From: a virus
Direction: 5' to 3' (one strand)
Virus record (IMG/VR): IMGVR_UViG_3300020029_000006
Coordinates: 1 to 6,065 of that record
DNA length: 6,065 bases
Shown: in pieces, positions 1 through 6,065 of the stretch
Numbering within the stretch: position 1 is the stretch's first letter
Layout of the letters: each line of letters begins with the position of its first letter
The notes under the pieces: generated by a model
What the model was told of the DNA's origin: nothing
The model's input: the letters and a program-made list of their open reading frames with translations, nothing else
The model's database searches: none
Program-made: the position numbers and the translations under genes

Positions 1-121
1 TACTCCTGAAGCCGCGAAGCAATAGCCAGCTGCGGTATGGTCGAGACGCCGGACATAGAGACGCCTTCGGAGCTACCAACGGGGAGTAACCGACTGTAGC
101 GATCAGGGTTCGAAGGCACAA
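1..121. repeat. Left copy of a 121-nt terminal direct repeat, identical to 5945..6065. It marks a circular genome and is probably assembly overlap rather than a biological repeat.
   Basis: Base-by-base comparison: 1..121 (tactcctgaagccgcgaagc...ggttcgaaggcacaa) equals 5945..6065 with no mismatch. The repeat lies inside one continuous reading frame. Confidence 0.95.
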
Positions 122-1061
122 CGGCCATCGGGTGGGCGACAAGAAATGCTCCAAGCGAAGTGACGGTTGTGGAGCCAGCGTCAGTAGAAAATTGGCCTGC
201 AGGACCCGCGGTTGACAACGAAGTGCTTCCGGGATAGATAGTAGAGACGGGATAGCCGTCCCTGGAGGCAGTAATCGTAGAGCCAAGGTCCGAGAGCAAT
301 ATCTGGGAATAAAGATTTCCTCTATTGTACGTATTGTTCGACGACGACACAGCCGAAGGGTAAAACTGACTCTCGAAATAAGCGTCGAGGTATTCGAGAT
401 TTCCGAATCTTTGCGAGAAAAACGTCGACACATCACTGAACTGAAGGACATTATAGATGGTACCAGTGCTGTTGGGGATAAGATACCAGCTGCTAGGCCA
501 AGCAAAAGAGTAAAGTCCCCACTGGGAGTAACCGTAGTAGTTGCGAACGATATCCCAATAAGCAAGGTAAGAATCAGCGGTACACCAACCTAAAGGGTAT
601 CCCAATTGGGCGGTCGAGAGGTTGGCCGACATAGGAACATTGCTAGATGTTGTCGATGGAATAGAAGCGGGAACAATGCGCAACCAGCGAAGCAACGAAT
701 TGGAGTAGGGGTAGTTGTTGGTAGTGTACGGGTAAGACGCGGTCGACGAAGAAGCAACGAAATTCAAGCTCAAATCATTCATATCAAACTTACTACTATT
801 CGTCCTCATCTCAGGATGGTACAGCTGAAGAGGCACCCAGAAGCGATGCAAACGAATAGTGTAAGGGTTGAACGACGGAACAGCGAGAGGGTTACTACGA
901 ACGTCAACGCCCTGCTCGATAGATACACGATCACGAGCGTTAATGAAATCGACTCGCACCGGATACAAAATGCCCGGCGTACACGTAAAAGCCTTACTCT
1001 CGGGAACATCGTACCGAGAATAGCCGTTTACGGCATGCGAAATGAAGGGTTGTTTTCCCAT
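1..1061 (-). CDS. VP1: Major capsid protein (Microviridae VP1/F-like), N-terminal 353 codons. The gene runs off the left edge and continues at 5944->5212 on the circle.
   Basis: This ORF is absent from the ORF track because it has no stop inside the window. Manual minus-strand translation from the ATG at 1061..1059 stays open to base 1: MGKQPFISHAVNGYSRYDVPESKAFTCTPGILYPVRVDFINARDRVSIEQGVDVRSNPLAVPSFNPYTIRLHRFWVPLQLYHPEM...AHPMAVVPSNPDRYSRLLP. The phase is 1061-119 = 942 = 3 x 314, so it joins in frame to track ORF 5212..6063 through the repeat. The N-terminal pattern (FTC..G.L.P..., VR.NPL..P, FWVP..L) resembles the conserved N-terminus of microvirus jelly-roll capsid proteins as I remember it. 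Confidence 0.85.
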   Translation of the reverse strand, partial: MGKQPFISHAVNGYSRYDVPESKAFTCTPGILYPVRVDFINARDRVSIEQGVDVRSNPLAVPSFNPYTIRLHRFWVPLQLYHPEMRTNSSKFDMNDLSLNFVASSSTASYPYTTNNYPYSNSLLRWLRIVPASIPSTTSSNVPMSANLSTAQLGYPLGWCTADSYLAYWDIVRNYYGYSQWGLYSFAWPSSWYLIPNSTGTIYNVLQFSDVSTFFSQRFGNLEYLDAYFESQFYPSAVSSSNNTYNRGNLYSQILLSDLGSTITASRDGYPVSTIYPGSTSLSTAGPAGQFSTDAGSTTVTSLGAFLVAHPMAVVPSNPDRYSRLLPVGSSEGVSMSGVSTIPQLAIASRLQE

Positions 1062-1064
1062 AAA

Positions 1065-2135
1065 TTAAGTATTTAGTTGGAGTTTATAGTGGTCTCTCCA
1101 AAACCGGAGAATATCCAAATCTAGCCACGTTGGAGGATCGAGGTCAGGCATTTTCCGGGAAGAGGCAGAGAACCGCATTATTTGCTTTTGTTCCCACGTA
1201 TAAGACGCTCTACGGGATACGGAGGAATTGAGATTGAACCGCTCAACACACAGAGACACAATACGCTTAACCAGAGAAGACTTGCTAAAACGTGAATAAG
1301 CATCAGCCGCGGCAATCGAGCGAACAACGTCGTCTTCAGGTTTAAGGTATCTAAGGTAATATCGAGGAATCGAGTAATTGTAATTGATACGCTTCTCAGA
1401 ATCAAAGTAAGACCACGACGAAACACGAGAAGAAGGGCGAGGCATATAACCAAGAAAATCACCAACGCCAGCAGATACGAATTTTCGCGTATAGCGGCGA
1501 TGTTGGAGGAGGCAAGATAAAGGTGTAGGGTTTCCATTTATGGTAACATATTTATCCGAAATTTCATCGGGGTTAAACTGAATCTGCTTAGTAACATATT
1601 TAACGCAGTAACGAGCACGCTTGTGAGTCGCTTTCGCCAGCCACACAAAACCAAGGTCTCGAACAGCGGAACGAATCGTATTATAGAGAACGTTTGTGCC
1701 AAACAGAAAGCCATGAAAATGCAATCGAGGTTCGCTTCCTGCTTCTGGGTGGGTACCAAACTCCTGGAAAAAGGCGTGTTTAAACGAATGACCGAGCTTG
1801 TGACGTAGACGTTCATTGAATTTCCGAATAAACCAGGACGGATTAAGTAGGGCTTCGTTATAATGCTTCGGAGCAATCGTTATTGTAATAAAAATAGCCT
1901 GCTGACTATCGGCCTTACAACGAGCAAGCTCGCGCTCGAGGCGCACGAACCAATCATTGCGCTGACGACGCAGACAGTCTTCACACTTTCCACATGGAAC
2001 CATGAGCCATTGACGGGCGATGTCCCAGGGACGGAGAGCCAGGGCAGACTTAGCAACATCAGAGCCGTTACGACAAGGGTTCTTCTTGTCAAAATAACGA
2101 CGATTGCGTATCCATATAGGCGACGAACAAGGCAT
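1065..2135 (-). CDS. VP4: Rolling-circle replication initiator (Microviridae VP4 / phiX174 gpA-like HUH endonuclease), 356 aa from the ATG at 2135.
   Basis: Track ORF 1065..2156 starts at a TTG, and the first ATG is at 2135..2133 (MPCSSPIW...). Motifs read directly from the sequence are as follows:
- FITITIAP (RCR motif 1).
- RLHFHGFLF (HUH motif; the H-F-H codons are at 1713..1721).
- ARYCVKYVTK (double-Tyr motif Y-x-x-K-Y-x-x-K, Tyr codons at 1608..1610 and 1596..1598), comparable to YVAKYVNK of phiX174 gpA.
- A Cys-rich PCGKCEDCLRRQRNDW segment typical of microvirus Rep N-termini. Confidence 0.9.
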   Translation of the reverse strand: MPCSSPIWIRNRRYFDKKNPCRNGSDVAKSALALRPWDIARQWLMVPCGKCEDCLRRQRNDWFVRLERELARCKADSQQAIFITITIAPKHYNEALLNPSWFIRKFNERLRHKLGHSFKHAFFQEFGTHPEAGSEPRLHFHGFLFGTNVLYNTIRSAVRDLGFVWLAKATHKRARYCVKYVTKQIQFNPDEISDKYVTINGNPTPLSCLLQHRRYTRKFVSAGVGDFLGYMPRPSSRVSSWSYFDSEKRINYNYSIPRYYLRYLKPEDDVVRSIAAADAYSRFSKSSLVKRIVSLCVERFNLNSSVSRRASYTWEQKQIMRFSASSRKMPDLDPPTWLDLDILRFWRDHYKLQLNT

Positions 2136-2335
2136 TACAGTATACTTTGAAGGCAATCAAATTTAACGCTAGGATGATCGCGGCGACAGCGAACAAGATA
2201 GTCAGTTGCGGGCTCCTCATCGGAAAACCAGGCGATGATGACGCGCCTTCTACCGCGGTATGCACCAACGGAAAAACGGTAAGGTATGCAATCAACAATC
2301 GGCGAAAACCTAGGCCTGAAATCGAAATAATCCAC
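2135..2335 (-). CDS. Hypothetical 66-aa protein with a GTG start. Its stop overlaps the Rep start codon.
   Basis: Track ORF MDYFDFRPRFSPIVDCIPYRFSVGAYRGRRRVIIAWFSDEEPATDYLVRCRRDHPSVKFDCLQSIL.
- For: it is on the same strand as all other genes, and its TAA (2137..2135) shares base 2135 with the Rep ATG (2135..2133), giving a TAATG coupling junction.
- Against: it has no ATG (the only start is GTG at 2335), it is short, and it has no recognisable motif. Confidence 0.3.
   Translation of the reverse strand: MDYFDFRPRFSPIVDCIPYRFSVGAYRGRRRVIIAWFSDEEPATDYLVRCRRDHPSVKFDCLQSIL
2158..2165 (-). promoter_or_regulatory. Weak candidate Bacteroidetes-type -7 promoter box (TAAATTTG on the minus strand), ending 22 nt upstream of the Rep ATG.
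   Basis: Plus-strand caaattta at 2158..2165 is TAaaTTTG on the minus strand, an exact match to TAnnTTTG. No TTTG -33 element sits at the expected spacing. The motif occurs about four times on this strand, so chance is plausible. Confidence 0.25.
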
Positions 2336-2392
2336 GACTAAAAAAAAGTTTTACACAACACGAGCCTAAGCGGGCTGCGCTGTTTCGGGCCT

Positions 2393-2414
2393 CGATCTCG
2401 CGTACGCGATATCG
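2393..2414. repeat. 22-nt near-perfect palindrome, cgat-c-tcgcgtacgcga-t-atcg.
   Basis: The core tcgcgtacgcga (2398..2409) is a perfect 12-nt palindrome. The flanks cgat (2393..2396) and atcg (2411..2414) are also complementary, leaving one c/t mismatch at 2397/2410. Confidence 0.8.
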
Positions 2415-2475
2415 TCGGCTCCGGAAACACTAACTCGCCGCGCTCTTAACGGCTCGGGGATATATAATAGAGAAG

Positions 2476-2507
2476 GAACCTGCAGGAGAAGAGTCTCCCA
2501 CAGGTTC
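2476..2507 (-). terminator. Two-tier stem-loop 44 nt downstream of the 107-aa ORF stop. It is a candidate intrinsic terminator or an ssDNA structural element.
   Basis: gaacctg (2476..2482) pairs with caggttc (2501..2507) for 7 bp. A 2x2 internal loop (ca/ca) follows. ggaga (2485..2489) then pairs with tctcc (2494..2498) for 5 bp around the tetraloop agag. On the minus strand the stem is followed by CTTCTCTATTATATAT, which is pyrimidine/T-rich but not a clean U-run. Confidence 0.35.
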
Positions 2508-2550
2508 GCTGCATCAAAGAACTCTTCCACCAAGAGGGCGGGTCACAACT

Positions 2551-2874
2551 TTAGTTCCCTTTCCCTTCTTTTTTCGTCGCGCCTTCATCGTAGTTGAGAT
2601 CAAAGTCAAACATAAGAACTATCGTATTGTCGAAAAACTCGATGCCAAAACCAGGAAGGTCTTCGCAGACGAAAATAAGGTCTGCTATTTTCGAGTGGTT
2701 GACGTAGAGCGAGTCGCTGATATCCGAACTCTCTAAGAATTGCGCAATAGGAGTGTCCGCAACAGCGCCAAGAGGGAGCGGGTCAAACTGACCGTCTTTA
2801 AAACGACCTATCTGGGCAAGGTCAACCTTGAGAGCCGGACTAACTCGCCGGATAACAACATGAATCTGTGTCAT
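2551..2874 (-). CDS. Hypothetical 107-aa protein (ORFan) with an acidic C-terminal half.
   Basis: The ATG is at 2874..2872 and the TAA at 2553..2551. It starts 11 nt after the stop of the preceding 106-aa ORF, on the same strand as the core genes. The protein is MTQIHVVIRRVSPALKVDLAQIGRFKDGQFDPLPLGAVADTPIAQFLESSDISD...FDFDLNYDEGATKKEGKGN. I recognise no motif. Confidence 0.6.
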   Translation of the reverse strand: MTQIHVVIRRVSPALKVDLAQIGRFKDGQFDPLPLGAVADTPIAQFLESSDISDSLYVNHSKIADLIFVCEDLPGFGIEFFDNTIVLMFDFDLNYDEGATKKEGKGN

Positions 2875-2885
2875 AATGATGTGAT

Positions 2886-3206
2886 TTAAAGTTTTACTTG
2901 AAATTCAGAGCAAAAGCGTTCCCAAGCGGCAGACTGCTTGCACCAAAATTTAGTACCTTCGGGTGCCGAAGTAAACAGAAACGAAGAAGAGACAAGGTGA
3001 CTCGGGCCAAAGCCGAAACCATCAAGAGAGTGTCGAATGTGAGAGCGCAGGCGGTCACGAAAACTCTTGTAGGGTTGGAAAGCACGCTCGTAATTCGCCT
3101 TAAAAGCGGCAAATATTCCTCGGCGAACAAGCCACTCAGTGAATGCATACTCTACAACGTCGATCATCAACTCGTTGGCTCTAACACTTTTGCTAGACTT
3201 TTTCAT
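2886..3206 (-). CDS. Hypothetical 106-aa protein (ORFan) and the first gene downstream of the candidate promoter at 3233..3263.
   Basis: The ATG is at 3206..3204 and the TAA at 2888..2886. The protein is MKKSSKSVRANELMIDVVEYAFTEWLVRRGIFAAFKANYERAFQPYKSFRDRLRSHIRHSLDGFGFGPSHLVSSSFLFTSAPEGTKFWCKQSAAWERFCSEFQVKL. The C-terminal F-x-F-T-x-x-P-E-G-x-x-F-W-x6-W-x2-F segment reminds me of small phage proteins of unknown function, but I cannot name a family. The longer antisense ORF 2898..3305 was rejected (see the rejected list). Confidence 0.6.
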   Translation of the reverse strand: MKKSSKSVRANELMIDVVEYAFTEWLVRRGIFAAFKANYERAFQPYKSFRDRLRSHIRHSLDGFGFGPSHLVSSSFLFTSAPEGTKFWCKQSAAWERFCSEFQVKL

Positions 3207-3232
3207 GGTAGTGTGGTTATTGGTTTACGATA

Positions 3233-3263
3233 CAAATATACGGCAAAAAGAACGAGTAACAAA
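3233..3263 (-). promoter_or_regulatory. Candidate Bacteroidetes-type promoter, TTTG (-33) followed by 19 nt and then TATATTTG (-7), driving the 106-aa and 107-aa ORFs.
   Basis: The minus strand reads cTTTGttactcgttctttttgccgTATATTTGtatcgtaaaccaataaccacactaccATG. Plus-strand caaatata (3233..3240) is TAtaTTTG, and plus-strand caaa (3260..3263) is TTTG, with exactly 19 nt between them. A second TTTG sits at 3267..3270. The element lies in the 83-nt gap between the VP2 stop (3290) and the ATG at 3206. It fits the Bacteroides consensus TTTG / TAnnTTTG, whose spacing I recall as roughly 19-21 nt. Confidence 0.5.
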
Positions 3264-3289
3264 GTTCAAAAGGTTGGAGAAATTGTTCA

Positions 3290-4546
3290 TTATTTCCCAG
3301 AATAGCTACGACGAGTATAAATACTACCATTTTTATCACCGTAGGGGCTGTAAATTTCCTTCACCTCTTCATAGCCTTCTGGACCAGTAGGACCTGCAGC
3401 CTTACGACTAACATACGCAGCGCCGGCGACGCCTGCAGCAGCAGCAAAGGAACGAACAACGTCATGAGCAAGACGAAGCCTGGAGTTGCGCAAATCCCAA
3501 CGAGTATTACCTACTTCAAGTTGAGCAGCTTCAGCAGCAGCGGTCTTCAGAATAGACGTAGTCTCGGCTACTTTCATCATCTTCGTCTCAACAACCTCAC
3601 CCTTATCATTGCGAATCTGAACAGGGACTTCTTTCTCCCAGTTGAGCTCGAACCAATTCTGTAAATCCTTGAGTTCTTGGTAATTAAGCTTGGTCCGGGA
3701 TTCAGACTCAGCAGCAGCAGAAACATTGGCGATGGCGGAGGACCAGGCAACCGCAAGCGCAGCACCAGCTTCAGGCTCGAACCAATCATTAGTTTTGCGA
3801 AGATTCTGGTACTTTTCTTCCAGAATGCCAGCCATAGCCATGATGGAGGACATCTTATAGCCTTGTGTAATATTGGACAAATAAGCGTCAATTGCAACGA
3901 TTTGAGCCTGTGCCTCGCGAAGGTTGGCGAGTTCACGGGCATCCTTAACATGGTGCTCAGCAATCTGTAACTCGAATTTATCCATTCGCTCTCGCCACTC
4001 TTGCGTATGAGTATTACCACGGAGGTTGGCAGCCTCTGCATCATCTCGATTTGCGGCAGCAGTATTGCGGTCGACCGTAGACTGTGCAACCATGTTTTGA
4101 GCGATAGAGGTAGGGTCAGCGGGAGCAAAGCCTCCAGGGGCAATCGGAGAGCCACCAGAGGGTCCGGAAGCGGAGGGCATGGACGCGGAACCGCCGGACA
4201 TAGTAGCGTTTACTCCAACACCAGAAGAACCTAAGACGGCGGCAGGGGTTACACCGGCTTTCAGATAACGATCGAAAACCTTCGAAGGGTCATTGTAAGA
4301 ATTTTCGTAATCGAACTGTCTCTGCCAATTAGCGTAGGAAAGCTCAGACTGTTTTTGCATCTGCTCTAAAGCGTACTTCTGCTGAAGAGCCATTTGCTTT
4401 TGCTGGAACTTCCACTGGCGGCGAGCGTTCATGCCACCAAAAAGTTGACCAAGAGCGCCAGTTATTAATCCGGTAGTACCGGTAGATGCAGCCGAATGAC
4501 CAAGAGCTTGGCCAAAGGATGCGGTAGCAGCAGCAGGAACAGGCAT
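3290..4546 (-). CDS. VP2: Minor capsid / DNA pilot protein (Microviridae VP2, phiX174 H-like), 418 aa.
   Basis: The ATG is at 4546..4544 and the TAA at 3292..3290. It is the second-largest structural-size ORF and lies downstream of the capsid gene. The layout is typical of VP2:
- A Gly/Ala/Thr-rich N-terminus (GQALGHSAASTGTTGLITGALGQLFGG).
- A Gln-rich helix (WKFQQKQMALQQKYALEQMQKQSE).
- NSYNDPSKVFDRYLKAGVTPAAVLG, resembling the conserved ...R.K.AG.NP..L segment of microvirus VP2 proteins.
- A Gly/Ser/Pro low-complexity linker.
- A long, probably alpha-helical and Ala-rich C-terminal part. Confidence 0.8.
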   Translation of the reverse strand: MPVPAAATASFGQALGHSAASTGTTGLITGALGQLFGGMNARRQWKFQQKQMALQQKYALEQMQKQSELSYANWQRQFDYENSYNDPSKVFDRYLKAGVTPAAVLGSSGVGVNATMSGGSASMPSASGPSGGSPIAPGGFAPADPTSIAQNMVAQSTVDRNTAAANRDDAEAANLRGNTHTQEWRERMDKFELQIAEHHVKDARELANLREAQAQIVAIDAYLSNITQGYKMSSIMAMAGILEEKYQNLRKTNDWFEPEAGAALAVAWSSAIANVSAAAESESRTKLNYQELKDLQNWFELNWEKEVPVQIRNDKGEVVETKMMKVAETTSILKTAAAEAAQLEVGNTRWDLRNSRLRLAHDVVRSFAAAAGVAGAAYVSRKAAGPTGPEGYEEVKEIYSPYGDKNGSIYTRRSYSGK

Positions 4547-4547
4547 A

Positions 4548-4739
4548 CTACATATGGATTAAATCGTTAGAACGAATGATATAATCGACACGAACAGTGT
4601 CAATGTGAACGCCACTACGCTGCACCCTAGCTTGGGCCGAACAGGAAGAAAGGAAAAAGGTGGCCAACGCAGCAATAATGGATGAGACGAGCGTCCAAAA
4701 AGCCTTTGATTTATAAAAAGGTTGCTTAGTGTCTGACAT
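4548..4739 (-). CDS. Small predicted lipoprotein, 63-aa precursor, with a lipobox Cys at residue 33 and a mature peptide of about 31 aa.
   Basis: Translation from the internal ATG at 4739..4737 of track ORF 4548..4880 gives MSDTKQPFYKSKAFWTLVSSIIAALATFFLSSCSAQARVQRSGVHIDTVRVDYIIRSNDLIHM. This has a Lys-rich n-region, an approximately 18-residue hydrophobic h-region, and L-S-S-C, which fits the lipobox [LVI][ASTVI][GAS]C (Cys codon at 4643..4641). The TAG at 4550..4548 lies 1 nt before the VP2 ATG. The upstream 47 codons of the track ORF span a long hairpin and read like non-coding sequence. Confidence 0.6.
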   Translation of the reverse strand: MSDTKQPFYKSKAFWTLVSSIIAALATFFLSSCSAQARVQRSGVHIDTVRVDYIIRSNDLIHM

Positions 4740-4793
4740 AACATTAAGAATTAAGGGGAAGCAATGGTGTAAACAATTGAATAAAGAACGATA

Positions 4794-4871
4794 GAAAAAT
4801 GCGCGGCCTCTTCTGCAGTCGTTACCAATAACCTTCAGGAATTCACGAACTCTTCCAGAAGGGGTCCGCGC
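4794..4871 (-). terminator. Long imperfect hairpin followed by a T-tract on the gene strand. It is a candidate intrinsic terminator after the VP1 / 98-aa ORF unit.
   Basis: gcgcggcctcttctg (4801..4815) pairs with cagaaggggtccgcgc (4856..4871). The pairing has 14 Watson-Crick pairs, one G-T pair (4809/4862) and one bulge (t4865), around a 40-nt loop. On the minus strand the stem is followed at once by ATTTTTCTAT. The hairpin sits in the 163-nt gap between the 98-aa ORF stop (4903) and the lipoprotein ATG (4739). The large loop is atypical for a terminator. Confidence 0.35.
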
Positions 4872-4902
4872 ACGTAGCATATATCTTCAAGTAAAGAATA
4901 TA

Positions 4903-5199
4903 CTATTTTTCTTCAGAATTAGAGGAACTCGAAGCGGGCTTAGCCTTATCGAGCTGAGAATCAATGAGTTCCTGTCCAACCTCAAGGCCATCGAACTTAT
5001 CCATGCGAGAGAAGGAATTGGGATCAAAATCGATATCGGGATTGAACTTCTCGCCCTTCTCAAAATCGGAAGGTTCGGCGATCACATCCGGACGGCCGGG
5101 AAGAACGTCAACGGAGCCAGAACCGTTCAGAACGGAAAGGATGCGCTGACCACGAGAGATGTAGGCAGGAGCGTCTTCAAGTAACCAATCAAGTGCCAT
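4903..5199 (-). CDS. Hypothetical acidic 98-aa protein directly downstream of the capsid gene. A scaffolding role is possible but unproven.
   Basis: The ATG is at 5199..5197 and the TAG at 4905..4903. It starts 12 nt after the VP1 stop. The protein is MALDWLLEDAPAYISRGQRILSVLNGSGSVDVLPGRPDVIAEPSDFEKGEKFNPDIDFDPNSFSRMDKFDGLEVGQELIDSQLDKAKPASSSSNSEEK. It is strongly Asp/Glu-rich with a Ser-rich tail. Its size, charge and position are compatible with a small assembly or scaffolding protein, but I recognise no diagnostic motif. Confidence 0.6.
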   Translation of the reverse strand: MALDWLLEDAPAYISRGQRILSVLNGSGSVDVLPGRPDVIAEPSDFEKGEKFNPDIDFDPNSFSRMDKFDGLEVGQELIDSQLDKAKPASSSSNSEEK

Positions 5200-5211
5200 A
5201 GAATCAATATA

Positions 5212-6065
5212 TTAACGATTAGACAAACGAGTTGCAAATGTTTTATTAACCAGATTCTTCTTCTGAACAGAATACGAAAGGTTGATAAAGAAGTTGTCTT
5301 CCTGCTTGGAGCTGAATGGAGAGTTTACCTGATCGATATCCACGAACAAAAGGGAGTAGTACTGGTTATAGCTTGCCGACAAAACACGCTGCTGGACCCA
5401 ATAAGAATAAAGAGGCTTAGTACCGGAAGCGCCTTGGAATCGAGACAGCTGACCAAGAACCTCATCATATGAGGATCGGAACTCATTAAAACACGGCTCG
5501 TAAGCCACTGCCTCCGAGGCCGAGGTGGTACCAAAGCCGAATTGGAATCCGGGAACGTCCTGATAACCAATATCGTTGTAGATCGGATTGAAATAATCAG
5601 CGCCAGTATAATGGAGATAATCAGGGAAAATACCCGACCAGTAGTAAACAGGACGAATACTTAGCATATCAATCATATAACCGGGTTCGCGAAAATAATA
5701 AGACTGCCGACGGCCGAGACGATCATTAAAGGCGATAGCTCCACCCTGCTGACCGAGAGGGGGCATACTGTAGTTATCGTTGCTAAAATTGTTGGCACCA
5801 GCCTGATTCATAACGACCTGCACATTAATAGTTTGCGAAGCACTAAAAAGCAACTTAGGCCTATCAACATGCTCGATCTTCGAAGCAAAAAAGGTTTCCA
5901 ACCAGTCGCTATAACGGGAACCTCCGGCACCAAGCAGGTCCTTGTACTCCTGAAGCCGCGAAGCAATAGCCAGCTGCGGTATGGTCGAGACGCCGGACAT
6001 AGAGACGCCTTCGGAGCTACCAACGGGGAGTAACCGACTGTAGCGATCAGGGTTCGAAGGCACAA
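5212..6065 (-). CDS. VP1: Major capsid protein (VP1/F-like), C-terminal part. The same gene as 1..1061, joined across the circular junction.
   Basis: Track ORF 5212..6063 has an apparent GTG start that is really an internal Val codon (window position 119 on the circle). The reading frame is open to the right edge. The TAA is at 5214..5212. Rejoined length is 1061 + 733 = 1794 nt, which is 597 aa plus the stop. The sequence includes aromatic/Gly-rich segments such as YYFREPGYMIDMLSIRPVYYWSGIFPDY, plausibly beta-rich, consistent with a jelly-roll capsid protein. Confidence 0.85.
   Translation of the reverse strand, partial: VPSNPDRYSRLLPVGSSEGVSMSGVSTIPQLAIASRLQEYKDLLGAGGSRYSDWLETFFASKIEHVDRPKLLFSASQTINVQVVMNQAGANNFSNDNYSMPPLGQQGGAIAFNDRLGRRQSYYFREPGYMIDMLSIRPVYYWSGIFPDYLHYTGADYFNPIYNDIGYQDVPGFQFGFGTTSASEAVAYEPCFNEFRSSYDEVLGQLSRFQGASGTKPLYSYWVQQRVLSASYNQYYSLLFVDIDQVNSPFSSKQEDNFFINLSYSVQKKNLVNKTFATRLSNR
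5945..6065. repeat. Right copy of the 121-nt terminal direct repeat, identical to 1..121.
   Basis: Exact identity with 1..121 over all 121 nt. Confidence 0.95.

Follow-up and report, generated by a model that had tools for sequence, protein, structure and literature searches.

The window analysed here is a stretch of 6,065 nucleotides (nt) of viral DNA (IMG/VR record IMGVR_UViG_3300020029_000006, positions 1 to 6,065), which represents an entire circular microvirus genome whose ends overlap by 121 nt and whose genes all lie on the − strand. Between the genes for VP3 and for the DNA pilot protein VP2 it carries a prolipoprotein gene of 63 codons (4548..4739, − strand, stop codon included; 63-amino-acid (aa) product), which, judged by its substitution pattern among relatives, is a real phage gene under strong purifying selection. 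Its product is very probably a genuine exported lipoprotein, the processing itself being predicted. As its role we favour superinfection exclusion or receptor masking in Bacteroidales hosts over lysis, with a probability of roughly 0.35.

Evidence for the gene and its lipoprotein signal

The gene was recognised from the listing of open reading frames (ORFs), its translation, the ratio of nonsynonymous to synonymous differences (dN/dS) and the codon periodicity. The ORF runs on the − strand from an ATG at 4739-4737 to a TAG stop at 4550-4548. Pooled NG86 estimates over 83 distinct 189-nt homologues gave pN 0.089 and pS 0.634, hence a dN/dS of about 0.07 in the lipoprotein frame, a rough value as pS is near saturation, and pseudo-dN/dS above 2.3 in the other two frames. 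By part, the ratio is 0.048 for the signal and 0.089 for the mature peptide. Column conservation by codon position is 0.92/0.955/0.64 within the ORF against 0.83/0.81/0.82 in the 141 nt upstream, and the codon periodicity begins exactly at ATG 4739. Each of the 85 relatives covered to 85% or more has an intact ORF, a close-relative set that comes mostly from one group of metagenomes. The initial annotation had proposed a small gene with its own ATG and had suggested looking at its conservation at this position and at its dN/dS; both bear the proposal out, and no relative examined has a disrupted frame. The alternative frames, among them a 61-aa ORF at 4744-4559, were ruled out by their pseudo-dN/dS. 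The significance of the ORF comes from this conservation and not from the lipobox pattern alone.

The product reads, in order, MSDTKQPFYKSK, AFWTLVSSIIAALATFFLSS, C33 and SAQARVQRSGVHIDTVRVDYIIRSNDLIHM, and its parts agree with what had been described from the translation: a basic n-region, a hydrophobic core, a lipobox LSSC and a mature peptide of exactly 31 aa. The signal peptide (residues 1-32; 4644..4739, − strand) consists of the n-region MSDTKQPFYKSK and a 20-residue h-region. The positive charges of the n-region are K5, K10 and K12, and the h-region (residues 13-32) is uncharged with an 11-residue Kyte-Doolittle mean of up to 2.37. In a 23-sequence alignment reaching down to 34% identity, K12, F14, W15 and F29 are invariant, and T16, L17, A24 and L25 nearly so. 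The lipobox L30-S31-S32-C33 (4641..4652, − strand) has an invariant Cys and a small residue at −1. The mature peptide, which we call type A (4551..4643, − strand), is predicted to begin with the lipidated Cys and to continue as a beta-hairpin with the motif G-[VIL]-H-x-D-T-V, in which G43, H45 and D47 are invariant in the same alignment. The AlphaFold2 (AF2) model, built from a 24-sequence alignment, has a helix at 12-32 and strands at 33-42 and 48-57 (mean pLDDT 81).

The junction with VP2 reads ...ATG TAG T ATG CCT, so that the VP2 ATG at 4546 lies 1 nt past the stop, as first reported; this TAG/TAA-T-ATG junction recurs in most relatives, and co-expression of the lipoprotein with VP2 is therefore plausible from the gene arrangement. 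Separately, a sigma-70-type promoter match (TTGACA-16-TATCAT, 11/12) was observed within the lipoprotein ORF at 4576-4603 (− strand), just 5′ of VP2, its TTGACA falling in the codons of the conserved I-D-T. We discount this match because Bacteroidales use different promoter motifs, and it is probably a by-product of coding constraint; the sigma-70 and terminator scans of the window are uninformative for a Bacteroidales host.

The PROSITE prokaryotic lipoprotein pattern, which we take to be {DERK}(6)-[LIVMFWSTAG](2)-[LIVMFYSTAGCQ]-[AGS]-C and applied by hand, fits the product, and so do its additional rules, which ask for the Cys no later than residue 35 and for a Lys among residues 1-7. The strict lipobox pattern by itself is weak, as it also matches 4 spurious alternative-frame ORFs in 12 related genomes. 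Family-wide conservation is more telling: 163 of 163 family proteins have S, G or A at −1, most have S, A, T or V at −2 and 131 have L at −3, and no column but that of the Cys is invariant in the widest alignment. The signal peptidase II (SPII) signal originally read from one sequence is thus a property of the family.

The strongest argument for a true lipoprotein is that mature peptides and signal peptides swap while the lipobox is kept. The type A mature peptide (C-x9-G[VIL]HxDTV...) stands behind at least 3 unrelated signal peptides that have only the lipobox in common (P0143 ...PSC, P0161 ...CSC, P0164 ...SSC), and the common signal peptide (…SKKFWTLVAAIVAALxAFF…) precedes at least 3 mature types, which are A, B and that of locus L105. 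Type B is C-TTRHYVVQSASSIKSGDTTRTTITYEQVGNFKRP, of 34 aa, and is found at the same position upstream of VP2 in L087, L102-104, L106-108 and L111 (for example L111 2547-2744); its carriers include PQ006896, the nearest GenBank relative of the window by major capsid protein (MCP; 75.7% identity), and two type B genes have the atypical lipobox LESC. The mature type tracks the adjacent VP2 and Rep and not the MCP, which indicates, on the comparison of these loci, recombination within the clade. A correlation of type A or B with capsid or pilot protein was considered as a clue to function and set aside, since the pattern is expected from physical linkage and recombination. One public record has already been named automatically as ‘MAG TPA: lipoprotein [Microviridae sp.]’.

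Regarding location, residues +2 to +6 are SAQAR, without an acidic residue; acidic residues occur there in only 5 of the 163 relatives and are absent in 158, and position +2 is S, A or T in 157. The Bacteroidetes lipoprotein export signal (LES) is experimentally defined as C-X-K-(D/E)2-X, or SDDDD in B. fragilis (PMC5080379), so the rule had been stated correctly at the outset. The acidic surface-export signal of LES-dependent Bacteroidetes lipoproteins is missing from the product, and for this reason the mature peptide should, by prediction, face the periplasm.

Distribution, function and rival explanations

Homologues were found by tblastn in about 50 GenBank microviruses at 37-90% identity, and a search of 5.8 billion protein clusters returned 377 homologous clusters at 90% identity. 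Among 1.84 billion representative proteins there were 52 matches, all apparently of the same microviral family except one repetitive 577-aa sequence, and no host homologue was found in that set. In addition, 80 IMG/VR loci with a homologue were fetched. A type A or B gene lies immediately 5′ of VP2 in 43 of 43 GenBank records with an MCP at least 59% identical (39 by match or inspection, 4 being same-species duplicates), and L119 (MCP identity 46%) also carries the gene. It was not found in five genomes of a sister clade with MCP identity of about 38-43% (L110, L120-L123), a small sampling of that clade. Other lineages have the gene between VP2 and Rep (L083, L085 and prophages). Between the window and lineages with MCP and Rep only 24-34% identical (partial alignments) the lipoprotein is 46-73% identical, and in most of these lineages VP2 gave no match to the window VP2. 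Because the lipoprotein identity far exceeds that of MCP and Rep, the gene would either have been exchanged between microvirus lineages or be extraordinarily constrained.

One homologue belongs to a microvirus prophage of about 5 kb in Alistipes montrealensis (L092), and further ones to prophages flanked by HisG, ZnuA and DUF4251 genes in metagenomic contigs. Temperate microviruses of Bacteroidetes are already known (PMC3091885), in agreement with these loci, and the hosts are Bacteroidales on the evidence of the prophages. In the integrated prophages L089-L092, of about 5 kb, the gene order is lipoprotein (long form), Rep, MCP, VP3-like, a 71-aa ORF and VP2, which places the insertion point between VP2 and the lipoprotein gene; no tRNA gene was found anywhere in the 18-kb L092 locus.

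From these sequences we infer the processing, localisation, target and phenotype of the lipoprotein as follows. The precursor would be exported by Sec in a Bacteroidales host such as Alistipes, Cys33 would be lipidated, and cleavage by signal peptidase II would leave a 31-residue lipid-anchored beta-hairpin. Having no acidic export signal, the hairpin would remain periplasmic and, with S, A or T at +2, would most probably occupy the inner leaflet of the outer membrane, by a +2 sorting rule that is taken from E. coli and unproven for Bacteroidetes. Its gene would be transcribed with VP2 and probably be translationally coupled to it. The hairpin may bind a conserved host envelope component and so alter the interaction of the infected or lysogenic cell with microvirus particles, with superinfection exclusion or masking of the receptor or entry site as the outcome, as for T5 Llp and Cor. 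Masking might also spare released progeny from loss on infected cells and debris.

Several observations are in favour of exclusion. The gene is accessory at the larger scale, as the sister clade (MCP about 40%) completes a microvirus gene set without it, and its high identity across lineages with diverged MCP and Rep suggests a mobile or host-adapted module. It lies at the edge of the integrated prophages, it is physically coupled in most lineages to the host-interaction gene VP2, and alternative mature types are carried on a common export signal. Moreover, the characterised small phage lipoproteins other than spanins, T5 Llp and Cor, are exclusion factors.

Other results weigh against this role. 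The lipoprotein has no sequence or fold relation to Llp, Cor or any solved structure. Over 80 close relatives it is conserved like Rep (mean identity 88% for both), far above the host-recognition proteins MCP (76%) and VP2 (61%), and it is near-identical in lineages with unrelated capsids; a factor matched to the receptor of its own phage would not be expected to behave in this way, unless what it targets is a conserved part of the entry machinery. Its universality in the clade with MCP of at least 59% would be expected of an essential function, for instance lysis, more than of a moron, and the genome has no recognisable lysis enzyme. Searches of Pfam, PHROGs, NCBIfam and PADLOC with the 63-aa protein and with its long relatives were negative, save for a weak PADLOC match on P0130 (PDC-M02A, E = 0.0028), a profile search of PDB sequences gave nothing meaningful, and Foldseek of the AF2 model against PDB gave no match at E <= 0.001, a helix and one hairpin being too small to be informative.

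Only slightly less probable than exclusion is the alternative that the lipoprotein is a lysis or egress effector, either the lysis protein or a part of one. In one version it would be a periplasmic ‘protein antibiotic’ against a conserved envelope machine (peptidoglycan synthesis or its regulation, Bam, Lpt or Lol), and in the other the outer-membrane part of a two-part system with an inner-membrane protein encoded within Rep. The window shows no detectable gene for a muralytic enzyme or for lysis of another kind, family searches finding no muralytic domain in any of its ORFs, and the gene is universal in its clade, lies in the late/structural block coupled to VP2, and is conserved independently of capsid and pilot diversification and common to deeply diverged lineages, in the manner of host-specific lysis cassettes. 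The initial statement that lysis is unexplained in most microviruses outside the phiX174 group needs qualifying, as an M15 peptidase is encoded by some of them, one being the Bacteroides phage phiHBP1 (PMC13064476). A homologue of that peptidase occurs in none of the approximately 110 fetched lipoprotein-bearing loci, and three phiHBP1-type genomes with the peptidase (L112-L114) are without the lipoprotein ORF, an anecdotal pattern with only three sampled.

The lysis reading also draws on the existence of two architectures, one being the short lipoprotein and the other about 200 aa long, which recall two-component and unimolecular spanins. In the long forms an ORF of 190-202 aa starts with the lipoprotein module (L088-L098, L101, L117 and the prophages L089-L092; for example L092 8976-9585). 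The middle of this ORF, about 110 codons with many S, T, L, P and F, runs over a gene which is read in another frame and is the better conserved of the two (mean BLOSUM local score 134 vs 62), and its end is a short hydrophobic stretch of 11-12 residues followed by RRGGRRGKGRPKGTKxIPLGGSHL, a tail similar to phiX174 J. The long forms were considered as selected fusion proteins: the long lipoprotein frame is open in 6 of 6 diverged genomes and the third frame has 5-8 stops, while the probability of no stop is 0.35-0.67 per genome on synonymous resampling of the overlapping frame, a null which is partly circular in using the region's own codon usage. Against a role as a spanin, there is no endolysin and no adjacent or overlapping inner-membrane spanin (i-spanin), the mature peptide has no Pro-rich region or extra Cys, and the C-terminal hydrophobic stretch of the long forms is very short.

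Against lysis stands a better-precedented candidate, and its presence is among the reasons for which exclusion is favoured. This is an ATG-initiated ORF of 119 aa in an alternative frame of Rep (1178-1537, − strand) with two strongly hydrophobic segments (METLHLYLASSNIAAIRENSYLLALVIFLVICLALLLVF...MLIHVLASLLWLSVLCLCVLSG...), predicted to be transmembrane (TM). It is open in 88 of 91 relatives, and the synonymous diversity of Rep drops from 0.43 outside to 0.18 over the overlap (Rep codons 207-326; Mann-Whitney p = 7e-23). The whole clade at 51% MCP identity or more has related two-TM ORFs ending ...PPYP[LV]E... By these patterns the 119-aa ORF has the appearance of a true overprinted gene for a membrane protein, comparable with E or K of phiX174, and is a candidate for lysis. 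Long alternative-frame TM ORFs are also present in Rep of L119-L122, among them sister-clade genomes without the lipoprotein, a clade which evidently manages without it, and the literature examined on single-gene lysis proteins (Sgl) mentions no lipoprotein Sgl. The more specific proposal, that the lipidated hairpin is a novel lysis effector, whether a periplasmic ‘lipo-Sgl’ or the outer-membrane half of an endolysin-free pair with the Rep-embedded two-TM protein, we consider doubtful. The probability that is left goes to functions other than exclusion, lysis or a membrane peptide.

It is improbable that the N-terminal segment is an uncleaved signal-anchor, that is, a permanent TM helix which binds a host membrane enzyme or self-associates in a holin- or E-like manner with the Cys unlipidated. 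The h-region, at 20 residues, is unusually long, the signal part is better conserved than the mature part in the main group (the dN/dS values given above), 9 of the 14 invariant or near-invariant positions lie in the N-terminal segment (K12, F14, W15, T16, L17, A24, L25, F29 and C33), and those from F14 to F29 are spaced by about one or two helical turns. The same mature peptide nevertheless stands behind unrelated signal peptides in P0143, P0161 and P0164, and the small −1 residue together with the invariant Cys fits recognition by Lgt and LspA and not a generic TM helix. A sequence-specific role of the signal-peptide helix was largely rejected on the first of these grounds.

An in-frame ATG at 4880 would extend the ORF to 110 aa, and about half of the automatic gene calls on relatives take the upstream start to give 100-aa products, but a non-secreted 110-aa protein with an internal hydrophobic segment, raised earlier as what would overturn the lipoprotein, has next to no chance of being the real product: the upstream in-frame ATG is missing in 52 of 93 loci, with a stop 4 codons upstream in 31, the segment is read in another frame in some relatives (P0100, P0024), codon periodicity is missing 5′ of 4739, and the conserved core of the segment is also present in L110, a genome without the lipoprotein gene, which points to a cis-acting DNA element. 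On this comparison the 100-110-aa forms are artefacts of a conserved non-coding element.

The upstream element and other features of the genome

The non-coding element lies between VP3 and the lipoprotein gene at 4780..4839 (− strand); over 83 relatives its column identity is 0.86-0.99 and it has no codon periodicity. The region 4740-4905, folded as single-stranded DNA (ssDNA), forms two hairpins with z = −3.4 against shuffles, in keeping with the structured intergenic region noticed earlier, and the block overlaps the 3′ arm of the long hairpin (4799-4873) and the subsequent T-run. Its core GGCCGCGCATTTTTCTATCGTTC (4786-4808) is present at no more than 3 mismatches in 10 of 24 more distant loci, including L110, and recurs in genomes with MCP only 43% identical, always between VP3 and VP2. 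The block is absent from the lineages with the long-form lipoprotein ORF, and Rfam gave no match in the window, this block included. Its possible roles include those of a terminator, of a promoter, and of an origin for replication or for the complementary strand. Gene callers often translate it as a false N-terminal extension of the lipoprotein.

The remaining genes of the window, all on the − strand, are as follows. The MCP (597 aa) runs from 1061 to 1 and continues from 5944 to 5212, followed by a VP3-like ORF of 98 aa (5199-4903), which with VP2 makes up the immediate neighbours of the lipoprotein gene. VP2 (418 aa, 3290..4546) matches PHROG 8689 ‘pilot protein for DNA ejection’ (E = 1e-5). 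Downstream are ORFs of 106 aa (3206-2886), 107 aa (2874-2551) and 66 aa (2335-2135), and Rep (363 aa, 2156-1065), which has the Pfam domain REP_ORF2-G2P. The closest GenBank relatives are unclassified faecal Microviridae of pigs, rodents, lemurs and tortoises, with partial nucleotide matches of 74-81% identity.

A strongly basic peptide of 24 aa, MKARRKKKGKGTKVVTRPLGGRVL, is encoded at 2514-2588 (− strand; the ORF is open back to 2609) and overlaps the 3′ end of the 107-aa ORF. Its mean identity is 91% in 87 related loci, and counterparts were found in L110 (MSRKNRRRKKSGRRTITQPLLGSVL) and L085 (MSRKRRKSRKSARPKVTFRIPNALR). In make-up it resembles phiX174 J (MSKGKKRSGARPGRPQPLRGTKGKRKGARLWYVGGQQF), with a basic run followed by hydrophobic-x-GG-xxx at the C-terminus, and it is possibly, by this resemblance, a J/VP8-like packaging peptide missed by annotators.

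Significance and comparison with known systems

In the mammalian gut, microviruses rank with the most abundant phages, and beyond phiX174-type phages we know of almost nothing reported on how they act on the host envelope in lysis, exclusion or persistence. Here a compact and autonomous lipoprotein family, very probably targeted to the envelope, is universal in one Bacteroidales-infecting clade and common to diverged lineages that form prophages. No description of a microvirus lipoprotein family was found in the searchable literature (microvirus with lipoprotein, lipobox or spanin). A global survey of microviruses describes small accessory proteins of about 65 aa, mostly of unknown function, which link families, and explicitly omits overprinted genes (PMC9239249). 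Small phage lipoproteins are known as a kind, and the present family is new, unrelated to those described and found in a virus and host new to the kind. Should it be an exclusion factor, its partner would show by which route gut microviruses enter the cell. Should it be a lysis effector, it would give the first lysis mechanism defined for Bacteroidales microviruses and the first lipoprotein-type single-gene lysis factor, and its target would mark a new antibacterial vulnerability of these bacteria. The overprinted gene for a membrane protein within Rep, the candidate J-like packaging peptide and the conserved cis element change the annotation of these genomes.

Llp of T5 and Cor of lambdoid phages are small outer-membrane lipoproteins that block the FhuA receptor, and llp adjoins pb5 in T5. 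The microvirus lipoprotein is like them a phage lipoprotein of fewer than 80 aa with an SPII signal, a predicted periplasm-facing location and a small beta-rich mature part, its gene adjoins a host-interaction gene (here VP2), and it also occurs in prophages. It differs in having no sequence, profile or fold similarity to them and a mature part of half the size (31 aa), in belonging to a tailless ssDNA microvirus of Bacteroidales, and in that its conservation does not track the capsid or pilot proteins.

With the Rz1-type outer-membrane spanins (o-spanins) and the T1 gp11-type unimolecular spanins the product shares a lipoprotein signal at the N-terminus and a periplasmic part of very few residues, and some relatives of about 200 aa resemble the gp11 type in combining a lipobox, a C-terminal hydrophobic stretch and a basic tail, partly overprinted on another gene. 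Unlike spanin systems, the window has no endolysin or holin and no i-spanin next to or overlapping the gene, and the peptide has neither a Pro-rich region nor a periplasmic Cys. A C-terminal TM segment is missing from the 63-aa form, and the sole candidate for an inner-membrane partner is encoded inside Rep, at a distance of about 3 kb. In the long forms the stretch of 11-12 residues is too short for a confident TM segment, and the openness of the long ORF is not statistically compelling.

In comparison with phiX174 E and the other single-gene lysis proteins (amurins), the lipoprotein is likewise a small membrane-targeted protein of a minimal phage without a muralytic enzyme, expressed with late genes. 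It has no similarity to E, and family searches matched it to no known Sgl family. Unlike E, its gene is not overprinted and occupies its own slot, and its lipobox points to cleavage and lipidation instead of a permanent TM helix; the closer analogue of E in the window is the overprinted two-TM ORF inside Rep.

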